Source: a virus
Lineage: Duplodnaviria > Caudoviricetes
DNA length: 64,000 nt
Virus record (IMG/VR): IMGVR_UViG_3300005686_000008
Strand: one strand, 5' to 3'
How positions within the stretch are numbered: position 1 is the first letter of the stretch; every line of letters starts with the position of its first letter. The notes below the pieces were generated by a model. The model was not told where the DNA came from. It was given only the letters and a program-made list of their open reading frames with translations, and did not search any database. The position numbers and the translations under genes were made by a program. Positions 16,737-60,252 of the stretch are shown here, piece after piece.

Positions 16737-18008
16737 ATGGAAACTATTGCAGAAAAACTCGGCCCTGTCGTTATCCCACAAGACCAAACCGGCGGTGTTC
16801 ATATCAAGTGCTGGGCAAAGTCTATTGACCCAGAAACTGGTAAGCCAACTCTCAATATTGAAGAGAAGGCTATTCGCCAAGCCTCAGAAGCTGCAAGACT
16901 TCCTTGTGTCTTTCATCATGTCGCTTTGATGCCTGATGCCCATACTGGCTTCGGTGTTCCTGTTGGCTGCGTACTTCCATTGGATAACGCCGTATCCCCT
17001 AATGCGGTTGGTGTTGATATTGGTTGCGGTATGTGCGCATGGAACTCTGGTATCAAAGTCGTAGACCTTGATATCAAGAAATTGATGACAACTATTGCTG
17101 CTGATATTCCTGTTGGCGAAGGTAAGAATCGTTCCAATAGCGATTTATGGCTTGGTCACAAGAGAATCGTTAGCCATATTGCTGATGTCGAGAAAAAGGT
17201 TGAAGAAGCGAAGGAACTCTGCAAGACTCTTGATTATCCTGAATGGTCAAGAGCTAAGGTTCAAATTGGCACGTTAGGAGGCGGAAATCACTTCATTGAA
17301 CTTCAGCAAGACGCTGAAGGAAATGCCTGGTTTATGCTTCACTCTGGTTCTCGCGGACTTGGAGCGCAGCTTGCCAAGAAGTTCCATCATCTTGCGGTTA
17401 TGACCTGCCGTAAATATCACACTCGTCTCGAAAATGAAGAATTAGCATTTCTTCCTGCTGACTCTAATGAAGGTCAATGGTATATTGCAAGTCTTCTTGC
17501 TGCGCAAGATTATGCTCTTGCCAATCGCCTTCTTATGATGATTTGTTGTCAGGATGCTATTCGGGAACAGTATTTCAATACTAATCCTGTCAAGGAAATT
17601 ATCAACATCCATCATAACTACGCTACTATTGAACATCACTATGGAAGGAACGTTTGGGTTCACCGCAAGGGTGCTACTCTTGCTCGTAAGACGACTACTG
17701 GTATCATTCCAGGTTCGATGTGCAGCAAGAGCTACATCGTAAAGGGAATGGAACATTCTGATAGTTTCTCTTCCTGCTCGCATGGAGCCGGTCGCCCCTA
17801 TAGCCGTACTGAGGCTAAGAAGCGTATTGCGGAAGGTATCGACCCTCCGCAGCACCAGCAGCTCAATGGCGTTGAACTCTTTGGAGTCAAAGAGGCTCAT
17901 GATGAACTGGGTTCAGCATACAAGAACATTGATATTGTAATGAGCAACCAGAAGGATTTAGTTAGCATTCAAACCGAATTGCTTCCTGTTGCCGTACTAA
18001 AAGGATAG
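16737..18008 (+). CDS. rtcB: RtcB family RNA-splicing/repair ligase
   Basis: MPDAHTGFG, VGVDIGCGM, GTLGGGNHFIE, HSGSRG, HHNY, HRKGAT, IIPGSM, SCSHGAGR, AYKNID. Confidence 0.97.
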   Translation: METIAEKLGPVVIPQDQTGGVHIKCWAKSIDPETGKPTLNIEEKAIRQASEAARLPCVFHHVALMPDAHTGFGVPVGCVLPLDNAVSPNAVGVDIGCGMCAWNSGIKVVDLDIKKLMTTIAADIPVGEGKNRSNSDLWLGHKRIVSHIADVEKKVEEAKELCKTLDYPEWSRAKVQIGTLGGGNHFIELQQDAEGNAWFMLHSGSRGLGAQLAKKFHHLAVMTCRKYHTRLENEELAFLPADSNEGQWYIASLLAAQDYALANRLLMMICCQDAIREQYFNTNPVKEIINIHHNYATIEHHYGRNVWVHRKGATLARKTTTGIIPGSMCSKSYIVKGMEHSDSFSSCSHGAGRPYSRTEAKKRIAEGIDPPQHQQLNGVELFGVKEAHDELGSAYKNIDIVMSNQKDLVSIQTELLPVAVLKG

Positions 18009-49221: not shown

Positions 49222-49294
49222 GGTGGCTATAGTTCAAAGGCTAGAATACCTGGTTGTGAGCCAGGGGGTACGGTTTCGAGATCCGTTAGCCACC
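49222..49294 (+). tRNA. tRNA-His(GTG) with G-1
   Basis: G-1 GTGGCTA/TAGCCAC C, loop TTGTGAG. Confidence 0.88.
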
Positions 49295-49307
49295 CTTTGA
49301 TTTGTTT

Positions 49308-49379
49308 AGGACTGTAGCTCAGAGGCAGAGCATTCCCTTGATAAGGGAGGGGTCGGGATTTCAATATTCCCCAGTCCTA
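49308..49379 (+). tRNA. tRNA-Ile(GAT)
   Basis: Acceptor AGGACTG/CAGTCCT, loop TTGATAA. Confidence 0.85.
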
Positions 49380-49386
49380 TTTTCCC

Positions 49387-49476
49387 CGGATAGTGTCCTG
49401 AGTTGGCTAAGGGGCCGCCTGATAAGCGGTGCATACTCCACAAGAGTATATGTAGGTTCGAGTCCTATCTATCCGA
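49387..49476 (+). tRNA. tRNA with GAT (Ile) anticodon and a long variable arm
   Basis: Acceptor CGGATAG/CTATCCG, loop CTGATAA, variable arm ATACTC-CACAA-GAGTAT. Confidence 0.8.
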
Positions 49477-58268: not shown

Positions 58269-58742
58269 AATGATCTACATTGAAAAAGAGCAAGCTTCTC
58301 AGACTTCTGAGGGAGACTTTACCCTTCCCTGGTGGGTTGCGAGATTTCCGGTCAATACATGGCCCGAAAAGGTGGACTTTGATGGGTTCATCTATCGCAT
58401 GGACCAGTTCAGAAGGGACAGCGTTGGAGAGGTTCTGTCTGTCACATACATTTGCGGAGACAAGAAGCTTGTTGTTACAAGTTAGGACAGACTAAACTTT
58501 TTGAGCAGCATTGGACAAAGCAATGAGCGAGAAAATCAAAAAGGTTCTCTTGACGGATGAGGAGCGGCGGATTAAAGTTGAGGAGGCTATCCGCTTTTTT
58601 CAGTCAAGCAAGAAGACTGAACAAGACCTCTATAACCTCATCAGTAATCTTACAGCAATCTACAACGATAGCGTCCCGGGCGGTCGAGAGATGGATTTTA
58701 TCTTGAGTTGGGTTGCGAGTTTCCCTGACAACTAAACTTTTA

Positions 58743-58776
58743 GACTTGGTAGCTCAGTTGGTAGAGCAGCGGCCTT
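58743..58776 (+). tRNA. 5' half (nt 1-34) of an interrupted tRNA gene
   Basis: GACTTGG TA GCTC AGTTGGTA GAGC A GCGGC CTT; pairs with the 3' half at 59914-59952. Confidence 0.85.
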
Positions 58777-58848
58777 GAAGACGTAGCTCAGCGGTAGAGC
58801 AGTGGACTTTTAATCCATTGGCCGAGGGTTCAAATCCCTCCGTCTTCA
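58777..58848 (+). tRNA. tRNA-Lys(TTT), nested inside the interrupted tRNA
   Basis: Acceptor GAAGACG/CGTCTTC, loop CTTTTAA, T arm GAGGG/CCCTC. Confidence 0.92.
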
Positions 58849-58901
58849 TTAAAAAGAAGGATTCTTATATAGACCGACAGAATACATTTCTGGAGGTGTA
58901 T

Positions 58902-59330
58902 ATGAATCCAAAAGGAAAAGGCGAAAAAGCTCAGTTGATAGTAATGGGAGAGTTTGCGAAACTTGACATTCCGGTTTTGGTTCCGCTAAGCGATAACCTA
59001 CCATTTGACTTTGTTGCCGTAATAAACGGTAATCTCAAAAAGGTGCAGGTCAAGTCAAGCGAAGGCGTTCAGAGAACAGGATCAAGAGAATTCAAACTTC
59101 GCAAGACAAACTGGTACAAAAAGACTCACAAGGGATATACAGAGCAAGACTGCGACCTAATAATCTGCTACGATCACGAAACGAATGATCTGTATGTCCT
59201 AAAACCTGAGCATTTTATTGGCGCAAAAAGTTTTGCCATCAGGAAAGAAAAGGCTAAAAACGGTCAAACCAAAGGACTAAACTTTCACGAGGATTTTGTT
59301 CTCACGAAGGAAAGGTTAGAGCAGGTATGA
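58902..59330 (+). CDS. PD-(D/E)XK endonuclease of the group I intron-associated (I-Ssp6803I-like) type
   Basis: GGAGG SD; KGEKAQ...VLVPLSDNLPFDFV...KVQVKS...YTEQDCD. Confidence 0.8.
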   Translation: MNPKGKGEKAQLIVMGEFAKLDIPVLVPLSDNLPFDFVAVINGNLKKVQVKSSEGVQRTGSREFKLRKTNWYKKTHKGYTEQDCDLIICYDHETNDLYVLKPEHFIGAKSFAIRKEKAKNGQTKGLNFHEDFVLTKERLEQV

Positions 59331-59917
59331 AGAAGATTGTTCTTTTTGTTTTTTCTTTTCTTTGCCTTACTAATGCAGGGTGTCATTATCCAACCGTTGC
59401 AGAGCAATGGGAGAATGATCCTCGAATGAAAGAGGCCGCAGAAAAAGCAAAGCAAGAACAATCTCAGTGGGAAAAAGAAAGAATTGAAAGAGAAGACGGT
59501 TTTGCGAAGTTCCAAGCGCAAATGGATAAACTTCGAGAAGCTGAAAAAAAGAGACAAGAGATCGACAATAGGAAAATCTCTCGTAAAGCAATCAAAGCAA
59601 TTGATCTTTACATTGCTTTTCTGGAAAAGCACGAAAACCCGACAGATGATGAGGTTTACATTTCGCCGGAATGTCTCACTTGGTGGGGACAAGTAAAAAA
59701 AGGCATGAGCGAAGAGCGATTGCTTGCAGAAATCAATTATTATCGAGAACTTCATTCTTTTATTGAAAGTGGAGTTGATGAGAATTGTTTTCTTGCTCAT
59801 ATGGAATACCTCCGCCTCACTTTGGGGTATCTCGATTCAAGCAAAGTTACGGTGCAGGGGTATTTCAGAAAAGACGGAACATATGTTAGTCCTCATTTTA
59901 GATCACGACCAAAGTAA
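59327..59917 (+). CDS. lipoprotein-like protein with VxGYxRKDGTYVxPHxRS motif
   Basis: Signal peptide ending NAGC; C-terminal VQGYFRKDGTYVSPHFRSRP; stop codon overlaps the tRNA 3' half. Confidence 0.7.
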   Translation: MKKIVLFVFSFLCLTNAGCHYPTVAEQWENDPRMKEAAEKAKQEQSQWEKERIEREDGFAKFQAQMDKLREAEKKRQEIDNRKISRKAIKAIDLYIAFLEKHENPTDDEVYISPECLTWWGQVKKGMSEERLLAEINYYRELHSFIESGVDENCFLAHMEYLRLTLGYLDSSKVTVQGYFRKDGTYVSPHFRSRPK

Positions 59918-59952
59918 GCCGTTGGTCGCGGGTTCGAGTCCCGCCCGGGTCA
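59914..59952 (+). tRNA. 3' half of the interrupted tRNA gene
   Basis: GTAA GCCGT TGGTC GCGGG TTCGAGT CCCGC CCGGGTC A. Confidence 0.85.
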
Positions 59953-59955
59953 TTT

Positions 59956-60252
59956 ATGAACAACGATAAAGTTGAGCAGATTTTCGCGGAAGAGGTAGAA
60001 GACATCTGCAAGCAACTGCGCGAAAAGCTCAAAGGTCGTCGTTCAAAGTCTTCTCATGGAGTCATTCATATTACCATCAATCCTTTTGGAGGAGAGGAGA
60101 TATGGAACTTCGGAGAGCCGAATATCCATACAACGAGAATTGATGTTCAAATTGGAGGAATGAGTCGCCGAGAAGAAGTTGGCTCCTTCAAAAATATGGA
60201 TGAGGCTTTTTCTGCGATAAAAAAAGTTGCGCAGATAATTGGTCTTATCTGA
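59956..60252 (+). CDS. hypothetical protein
   Basis: ORF after the tRNA half. Confidence 0.55.
   Translation: MNNDKVEQIFAEEVEDICKQLREKLKGRRSKSSHGVIHITINPFGGEEIWNFGEPNIHTTRIDVQIGGMSRREEVGSFKNMDEAFSAIKKVAQIIGLI

Follow-up and report, generated by a model that had tools for sequence, protein, structure and literature searches.

Architecture of the locus

The DNA analysed here is a stretch of 64,000 nucleotides (hereafter the window) from a virus (Duplodnaviria; Caudoviricetes) held in IMG/VR as record IMGVR_UViG_3300005686_000008. The full record measures 370,652 bp, is classed as linear and about 73% complete, and originates from bioreactor-sludge metagenomes. At positions 58743 to 59952 of the window, a tRNA gene is interrupted within its anticodon loop by an insert that holds a second, complete tRNA gene, a gene for a homing-type endonuclease and a further open reading frame (ORF). 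All of these features lie on the + strand.

A copy of the intergenic motif ACTAAACTT (58731-58739) lies just ahead of the split gene's 5' half, at a distance of 3 nt. This half, delimited by direct reading and stem bookkeeping, covers tRNA positions 1-34 (58743-58776). It reads GACTTGG TA GCTC AGTTGGTA GAGC A GCGGC CTT and comprises the 5' strand of the acceptor stem, the D arm, the 5' strand of the anticodon stem and the loop nucleotides C32, T33 and T34. The insert thus follows position 34 (U34), inside the anticodon loop. It opens, after a spacer of 0 nt, with a nested complete tRNA-Lys(UUU) gene (58777-58848; Rfam tRNA, 79.7 bits, E 2e-17), which ARAGORN places at 58776-58849, starting one base early. 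A 53-nt leader separates this tRNA from the endonuclease gene (58902-59330, 142 aa, Pfam PF11645), and a hairpin (58859-58910, minimum free energy -24 kcal/mol) spans the translation-initiation region. The second ORF of the insert (59327-59917, 196 aa, taken from the ORF list), referred to here as cargo, has a lipoprotein-like N-terminus and overlaps the endonuclease stop (ATGA). Its own stop codon, TAA, coincides with the anticodon-loop nucleotides T36, A37 and A38 of the split tRNA. Apart from roughly 53 nt, the whole insert is made up of tRNA and ORFs.

The 3' half, positions 35-73 of the split tRNA (59914-59952), was recognised by direct reading and by its full pairing with the 5' half. 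It reads GTAA GCCGT TGGTC GCGGG TTCGAGT CCCGC CCGGGTC A, which corresponds to position 35 (G), T36, A37 and A38, the 3' strand of the anticodon stem, the variable loop, the T arm, the 3' strand of the acceptor stem and A73. Membership of G35 (59914) in the insert or in the exon is ambiguous. Joined, the halves form a 73-nt cloverleaf in which the acceptor (7/7), D (4/4), anticodon (5/5) and T (5/5) stems are fully paired. The fit of the two halves is far beyond chance, and the identical split occurs in relatives. Direct reading of 58500-60200 agrees with the initial annotation of this DNA, made from its letters alone, which had described a tRNA within a tRNA, an I-Ssp6803I-type endonuclease and a matching 3' half. 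By contrast with this reading, the ARAGORN intron search called the nested tRNA-Lys only and not the outer tRNA. The arrangement is not that of an integrase-type island: the halves belong to one gene and do not overlap, no tRNA segment is duplicated, and neither the ORF list nor a Pfam search gave a recombinase gene in the insert.

The assembly appears sound at this point. Both split-tRNA junctions, which had been flagged for a misassembly check, are spanned with 0 differences by contigs from three samples of one bioreactor-sludge study, at depths of 8 to 520, and these contigs cover the whole stretch unchanged. They are not independent evidence, because the samples may be the origin of the IMG/VR record itself. 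The split layout is also present in more than 10 relatives assembled independently in other studies, and an assembly artefact or a chimera at one junction is consequently an extremely improbable source of the layout.

Identity of the split tRNA gene

Exact rejoining of the window's halves, across the junction CGGCCTT-GTAAGCCG, gives a molecule that ARAGORN names tRNA-Thr(tgt). The initial annotation had noted this Thr reading and had guessed, in its place, at an ancestral tRNA-Lys with the loop CTTTTAA. Comparison with relatives favours the guess (L-numbers are the labels of the relatives' stretches used in these comparisons). For example, L011 and L040, which have the same architecture, read CTT|...|TTAA, while the 5' half of L030, identical to that of the window at 33 of 34 positions, continues as CTTTTA. 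An uninterrupted allele, which the initial annotation had suggested seeking in related phages, was also found: L063:64-136 (75.1 bits) reads GACCTCG TA GCTC AGTCGGTA GAGC A ACGGA CTTTTAA TCCGT ... CGGGGTC A, and its 5' part matches the 5' half of the split gene in L035. tRNA-Lys(UUU) genes that are intact and have matching D and anticodon arms are common. Finally, G35 also stands at the right junctions of L043 and L044, where the tRNA backbones are of kinds that have TTAA elsewhere, and is therefore a change at the junction rather than a sign of Thr identity. Judged by these sequences, the split resident gene is a tRNA-Lys(UUU) gene and not a tRNA-Thr gene.

The uninterrupted allele was sought with DNA-pattern searches of IMG/VR. 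The first of these was not decisive, because Lys, Met, Asn, Ile and Arg tRNAs share the anticodon arm, and a later one gave L063. An apparent empty-site joint (58768 to 59924, with 18 other letters between) was discarded, as it proved to be an unrelated tRNA of another organism.

L063 holds a second copy of the target tRNA-Lys (L063:3561-3654) with a hairpin-forming insert of 21-22 nt (CCGCTGTTGAAACAGCATGAA[T]) at the same 34/35 site. This insert may be the deletion scar of a cassette, or something else. The idea that it is a remnant of the endonuclease 3' end was rejected, since its alignment was no better than those of shuffles (p 0.16-0.9).

The nested tRNA and the genes of the insert

The nested tRNA-Lys is the sole tRNA-Lys in the 370-kb record, in which an ARAGORN scan of the whole length counted 25 tRNA genes, arranged in arrays. 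In an alignment of 10 homologous tRNA-Lys genes, nested or adjacent, 99.5% of the cells are paired, compensatory changes occur at 15 of the 21 pairs and the CTTTTAA loop is invariant, a pattern that marks the nested tRNA-Lys as an apparently live gene under selection. In 8 of 10 variants, its anticodon stem is without the C28-G29-G30 / C40-C41-G42 found in the split gene (target NCGGN), which is consistent with a nested tRNA gene that would resist cleavage. A stricter rule, under which the nested anticodon stem would always differ from the target, was rejected: 8 of the 10 variants fit it and L043 and L048 break it.

The 142-aa ORF matches Pfam PF11645 (PDDEXK_5) with E 5e-23 and 82.1 bits (cut-off 26.1), its residues 1-133 covering positions 1-136 of the 138-position profile. 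It also matches PDB 2OST (I-Ssp6803I) with E 4e-9, and the active-site strand KVQVKSS is identical in the two. Its residues E8, D34, Q47 and K49 align with D9, D37, Q50 and K52 of 2OST and are kept in all 10 aligned relatives; these E/D/QxK residues are reportedly catalytic (Zhao et al. 2007). These matches identify the predicted product as a full-length member of the I-Ssp6803I-type PD-(D/E)XK family. Compared with relatives, the gene has a dN/dS of 0.05-0.09 while synonymous sites differ by 42-83%, near saturation, as would be expected of a live gene under strong purifying selection.

Both the Shine-Dalgarno sequence of the endonuclease gene (GGAGG, 58892-58896) and its AUG (58902-58904) are paired within the hairpin at 58859-58910, which has a z-score of -6.7 and was matched by 0 of 200 shuffles. 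Counterparts of the region are present in L011, L030, L035, L039, L041, L043, L044 and L048, and the core helix is kept in nine relatives, with two pairs changed on both sides. Because the hairpin pairs both initiation signals, it probably keeps translation of the nuclease low and would thus have a regulatory role. Such apparent translational repression by a hairpin resembles that of some phage homing endonucleases.

The cargo ORF begins with a sequence that resembles a signal peptide and lipobox (..LTNAGC). It gave no Pfam or PHROG family and no Atlas lead. Relatives have unrelated ORFs in its place, or none, and the terminal ORF stops on the TAA of the loop in 7 of 8 right junctions.

Recurrence in related phages

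A protein search with the endonuclease gave relatives whose matches are 66-92% identical. At least 10 distinct relatives repeat the order of 5' half, nested tRNA-Lys, endonuclease and 3' half, and the identity of their endonucleases ranges from 92% down to 45%. The tRNA-Lys plus endonuclease core is kept wherever the contig includes that part, and in L060 the upstream portion is a 3' tRNA fragment only.

The surroundings of this core vary widely. In L035-38 (endonuclease 92% identical), the nested tRNA abuts the 5' half (0 nt), a cargo ORF is absent and ATGA TTT|TCCGT forms the right junction. L011/L040 have a 10-nt left spacer and an unrelated ORF of 70 aa encoding a membrane protein, while in L044/45 the left spacer is 4 nt and the endonuclease's own stop is the TAA of the loop. 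Longer left spacers are found in L030 and L039 (about 265 nt with a 78-aa ORF between the 5' half and the nested tRNA) and in L043 (1.1 kb with three ORFs). L030 and L039 have the left part of the layout; the right end of the former lies beyond its contig, and no 3' half was found in the latter. Other variants have lost pieces of the outer gene: L041/42 lack the left loop and read TTTTTTAA on the right side, L048/49 carry the whole loop on the left and have lost the 3' anticodon strand, and in L046/47 both halves are gone. In L058, from an AT-rich phage, the endonuclease is 45% identical and the layout is the same, with a decayed acceptor stem (4/7 paired, read by hand). Five types have CTT|GAA at the left junction, and the split alleles differ in their acceptor strands (GACTTGG, GATCCCG, GGGATCG and GCCCTTG).

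More distant endonucleases (31-37% identity) are free-standing, yet lie directly 3' of a tRNA-Lys(TTT) gene, in phages with in-frame TAG codons. For instance, in L012-L026 (e.g. L012:3001-3408), TAG occurs in frame in the endonuclease homologues, and the contigs also carry tRNA-Sup(TTA) genes together with RAGATH-14 or hammerhead RNAs; these phages probably use a recoded stop codon. In L064 (G003:C1:10284-13685), a PF11645 endonuclease gene (C1:11784-12185) stands free between tRNA-His(GTG) and tRNA-Ile(GAT), and the Lys locus is empty. Its leader resembles that of the window's endonuclease gene. The corresponding His-Ile array of the window (49223-49380) has no endonuclease.

Mobility of the cassette

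The identities of inserts and flanks are discordant among relatives. Between L011 and L040, the halves and insert are 98.0% identical and the flanks 77-85%; between the window and L035, the cassette is 89.9% identical and the flanks 72-78%. The reverse is seen between the window and L030, where the upstream flank is 94.7% identical and the cassette 75.7%. L035 and L011 share identical 3' halves and a downstream flank of 89.5% identity, with inserts of 76% identity and nested tRNAs of different lineages, and L039 is a combination of L030 and L011 parts. Together with the varying cargo, these discordant identities argue that the cassette is mobile, that one and the same site in this gene has received different cassettes, and that whole modules move too.

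Movement of whole modules may involve the intergenic motif ACTAAACTT, of which the window contains 29 copies (28 on the + strand) where 0.45 would be expected. The sites, among them 58491, 58731, 60255, 60544 and 60861, mostly lie right before genes or behind tRNA arrays. The motif probably acts as a promoter or regulatory signal of the phage, and probably also as a recombination boundary of exchanged gene modules.

Such boundaries raise the possibility that the endonuclease is a bystander, the locus being a hotspot of motif-bounded cassette shuffling in which a tRNA was split once by illegitimate recombination. The locus is indeed hypervariable, as the same flanking genes enclose nothing or other ORFs in relatives, and the island shared by L011 and L040 is motif-bounded. 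This explanation nevertheless has to account for an insertion point that is constant (after CTT) and a core that is constant in tRNA-Lys alleles with the four different acceptor strands given above, and for the same layout in the different, AT-rich phage background of L058. A single accident is insufficient for this recurrence across alleles and in L058, and we regard the bystander account as very unlikely.

Absence of a group I intron

A conserved insertion in an anticodon loop recalls the group I introns of tRNA genes. In tRNA-Leu, the classical site of these introns is 'position 3, U-1' (CUU/a...g/AAAA; bioRxiv 10.1101/2020.01.27.920355), and insertion after U34 corresponds to this site. 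The Rfam model Intron_gpI gave 0 matches at E<=10 in the window and 0 at E<=1 in eight relatives, in line with the initial annotation, which had seen no group I catalytic core. No ribozyme core (P3-P9) was found, the insert being filled by tRNA and ORFs. A terminal omega-G is likewise hard to place: if G59914 is taken as omega, a 6-nt loop remains (CTT+TAA), and if it is kept in the exon, the loop is CTTGTAA, which is not that of a tRNA-Lys.

The insert could be a degenerate group I intron at the 34/35 site of tRNA-Lys that lost its ribozyme after capturing a tRNA-Lys, is now immobile and survives as vertical relics shuffled by recombination. Apart from the classical insertion site (bioRxiv 10.1101/2020.01.27.920355), this would fit the G before TAA in the window, L043 and L044, which resembles an omega-G, and the movement of whole modules at the ACTAAACTT motif. 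It would also fit the family's type member, which is intron-encoded (PMC3384342; Bonocora and Shub 2001, cited in PMC3984707). Against it, a ribozyme remnant was found in 0 of 9 loci, and strong purifying selection on the endonuclease is unexpected for an immobile relic. Different inserts occur at identical 3' halves and within near-identical flanks, which argues for repeated site-specific replacement. The distant homologues, moreover, are free-standing beside tRNA-Lys, suggesting that the tRNA-plus-endonuclease module came first. A degenerate intron is thus an unlikely origin for the insert.

Proposed mechanism and the fate of the outer tRNA

We consider it fairly likely that the locus holds a mobile homing-endonuclease cassette, seated in the anticodon loop of a phage tRNA-Lys(UUU) gene, that carries a replacement tRNA-Lys and operates without a ribozyme. 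Its conserved core appears to be the complete tRNA-Lys(UUU) followed by the endonuclease gene, with variable cargo ORFs on either side. One of two ideas put forward in the initial annotation was a selfish, intronless element that brings its own tRNA-Lys. This idea gains from the conserved core, the discordant identities, the purifying selection on the endonuclease and the status of the nested gene as the only tRNA-Lys in the record.

In such a system, the endonuclease would cleave the anticodon-arm region of tRNA-Lys genes that are uninterrupted in co-infecting phages, a target suggested by the enzyme family and the insertion site. The break would be repaired from the occupied allele, with the tRNA halves acting as short homology arms, and the cassette would be copied in. 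The interrupted gene would be dead as a decoder and the cassette's tRNA-Lys would supply the lost function; an RNA gene of an essential type could thereby be invaded without an intron. Insertion would also destroy the cassette's own target site and so confer immunity, while whole modules of split tRNA plus insert would be exchanged in addition by recombination at the flanking intergenic motif. Cleavage specificity, homing, resistance of the nested tRNA gene and compensation by it are what we infer from sequence comparison.

The state of the outer gene bears on this proposal. Its decay is concentrated by the junctions, as seen in G35 (window, L043 and L044), TTT (L035), the loss of the 3' anticodon strand (L048/49) and the loss of the left loop (L041), while the acceptor stems are 7/7 paired in eight variants. 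Decay near the junctions with intact distal acceptors fits homology arms rather than a working anticodon. The halves could then stay conserved because the cassette homes into live alleles again and again, and because selection at the level of the element favours arms of good homology.

Several observations weigh against a homing cassette of this kind. The nested tRNAs of L043 and L048 have a target-type anticodon stem, which weakens the idea of a resistant replacement. Five syntenic cassette-free relatives, found by their flanking proteins, have no tRNA of any kind at the locus and so provide no empty site with an intact tRNA at the same position, and the sole intact allele (L063) belongs to a more distant phage. 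The 98% island of L011 and L040 is bounded by two copies of ACTAAACTT with both halves inside, so at least that transfer needs no endonuclease. Lastly, the halves of the window and L035 differ at 10 of 70 positions, all pair-preserving, where synonymous sites of the endonuclease are 42% different. The halves are thus better kept than neutral DNA, which requires repeated re-homing or some selection on the shell that they form.

Selection of the latter sort would be expected if the outer tRNA were used as RNA. Within the long transcript, the halves would fold into a tRNA-like shell of acceptor, D and T arms, processed by cellular tRNA-end enzymes, that is either rejoined, for example by the phage's RtcB, into a second tRNA, or that stabilises or regulates the endonuclease mRNA. 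Alongside the pair-preserving differences between the window and L035, acceptor stems remain 7/7 paired in eight variants despite synonymous saturation in the endonuclease. A compensatory change, T6-A67 to C6-G67, separates L048 from L049 (98.4% identity), and L041 has a compensatory D-stem change (ACTC/GAGT). Part of this covariation is trivial, because G-rich 3' acceptor strands tolerate C/T changes opposite them. An RtcB RNA ligase is indeed encoded, at full length, at 16737-18008 of the window (+ strand, 348 bits), and is the only RNA ligase found in the record.

Other observations do not agree with such use as RNA. Left-junction spacers range from 0 nt to 1.1 kb, some with ORFs, and exact rejoining yields CTTTTAA in L011/L040 only, with G35 left over in the window, L043 and L044. 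L035 has a non-canonical loop, L048/49 lack the 3' anticodon strand, the L058 acceptor is paired at 4 of 7 positions and L039 is without a 3' half. As for enzymes, the PF01974 search for a splicing endonuclease was positive in 4 of 14 control genomes and negative for the record, in which Rnl2 was not found either. An Rnl1 search gave no match in the record nor in any control genome and was thus without a positive control. RtcB requires 3'-phosphate and 5'-OH ends, whereas RNase P leaves 3'-OH and 5'-phosphate ends, so these end chemistries make the ligase a poor fit for RNase P products. The other idea of the initial annotation, release of the 5' half at nt 34 by RNase P followed by ligation, is not supported, because the junctions, spacers (left gaps of 0 nt to 1.1 kb) and loop remnants differ among relatives, and the remnants often cannot rebuild CTTTTAA.

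Overall, use of the outer tRNA at the RNA level seems quite unlikely. Equally doubtful is its specific form, in which the shell would fold like a tRNA for the cell's tRNA-end enzymes and perhaps RtcB, giving a second tRNA or a stable mRNA capped by tRNA. If true, it would amount to a protein-dependent 'tRNA intron' system in bacterial viruses. Since the phage has 25 tRNA genes, its RtcB suggests a different role, namely the repair of tRNAs cut by host anticodon nucleases. For the homing cassette, a related possibility is that the endonuclease spreads the mobile tRNA-Lys as an anti-defence payload, one that may counter anticodon nucleases directed at tRNA-Lys.

Comparison with known systems

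I-Ssp6803I comes from a group I intron that interrupts the tRNA-fMet gene of Synechocystis (PDB 2OST; PMC3384342; Bonocora and Shub 2001, cited in PMC3984707). The window's enzyme shares its family (PF11645), the 2OST match and the KVQVKSS strand; both elements sit in a tRNA anticodon loop, and the target is of the same kind, the naturally pseudo-palindromic anticodon region of a tRNA gene. Unlike I-Ssp6803I, the cassette has no intron RNA, so the interrupted tRNA would not be restorable by splicing, and it carries a second complete tRNA gene and cargo ORFs. The hosts and isotypes also differ, with a huge phage and Lys here and a cyanobacterium and fMet there.

A second point of comparison is SegB of phages T4 and T6, a free-standing homing endonuclease of the phage tRNA cluster (PMC2330249, as cited in PMC13096335), and the 'intronless homing' described in PMC3984707. 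As with SegB, the endonuclease gene is linked to phage tRNA genes and would move with flanking DNA by break repair. As in intronless homing, the endonuclease lies outside any intron or intein, and the histories of insert and flanks are mosaic. SegB is a GIY-YIG enzyme that is intergenic and cuts at a distance, whereas the cassette interrupts the gene that is its presumed target, much like an intron, and would gain immunity from this disruption of the site rather than from a sequence difference in the donor's target variant. An intergenic location is found in the distant homologues L012-L026 and L064, which are of the SegB-like free-standing kind, and not in the window.

Mitochondrial endonuclease ORFs offer a further parallel, as they bring along a replacement gene part in Allomyces macrogynus atp6 and in Glomus atp6, atp9, cox2 and nad3 (PMC3630166). 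As there, the element enters a needed gene and brings a foreign copy of what it displaces, with the native remnant staying downstream. In the mitochondrial cases the copy is a C-terminal protein part in frame, whereas here a whole RNA gene is carried and both old remnants flank it.

Split and intron-containing tRNA genes are known from Nanoarchaeum and other archaea (PMC3218864, PMC4033280), and share with the window an interruption in the anticodon loop and complementary halves. Archaeal tRNAs are processed by a dedicated endonuclease at a bulge-helix-bulge and then ligated; here no such enzyme was found (no PF01974 match) and the junctions are not conserved among relatives. A literature search found no paper that describes a design of endonuclease plus spare tRNA.

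Other tRNA observations

Several tRNA features elsewhere were noted. In the L028:1748 region, a T-arm-like segment (ACGGGTTCGAATCCCGT) without a called tRNA lies near an odd 94-nt ARAGORN call (796-889), and may be another broken or nested tRNA. In the source record outside the window, a tRNA with the anticodon CTA (G000:C1:363188-363261; ARAGORN label Pyl) reads the TAG stop, and is a possible suppressor; late phage genes might be recoded. Within the window, seven tRNA-Leu calls lie at 45928-46811, three of them of only 74-76 nt (45928-46001, 46287-46360 and 46378-46453), short for class II Leu, and a 90-nt tRNA-Ile(GAT) with a long extra arm lies at 49387-49476. The isotype assignments of these phage Leu and Ile calls deserve a second look.

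Implications

To our knowledge, homing endonucleases are thought to persist in essential genes only by way of self-splicing introns or inteins, and otherwise to lie between genes. [quoted passage not shown] It would represent an alternative open to elements that target RNA genes, in which the element enters the target itself and brings a spare copy with it. Such cassettes link the intron-borne I-Ssp6803I to the free-standing nucleases of tRNA clusters, and are plausible intermediates between both life-styles.

There are also consequences for annotation, as the outer gene escapes tRNA finders and is given a false isotype (Thr for Lys) when its halves are simply rejoined. The endonucleases themselves may yield new long-site nucleases specific for tRNA anticodon arms. 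For the phages that carry them, cassettes of this kind would make tRNA repertoires and small cargo genes transferable between genomes.

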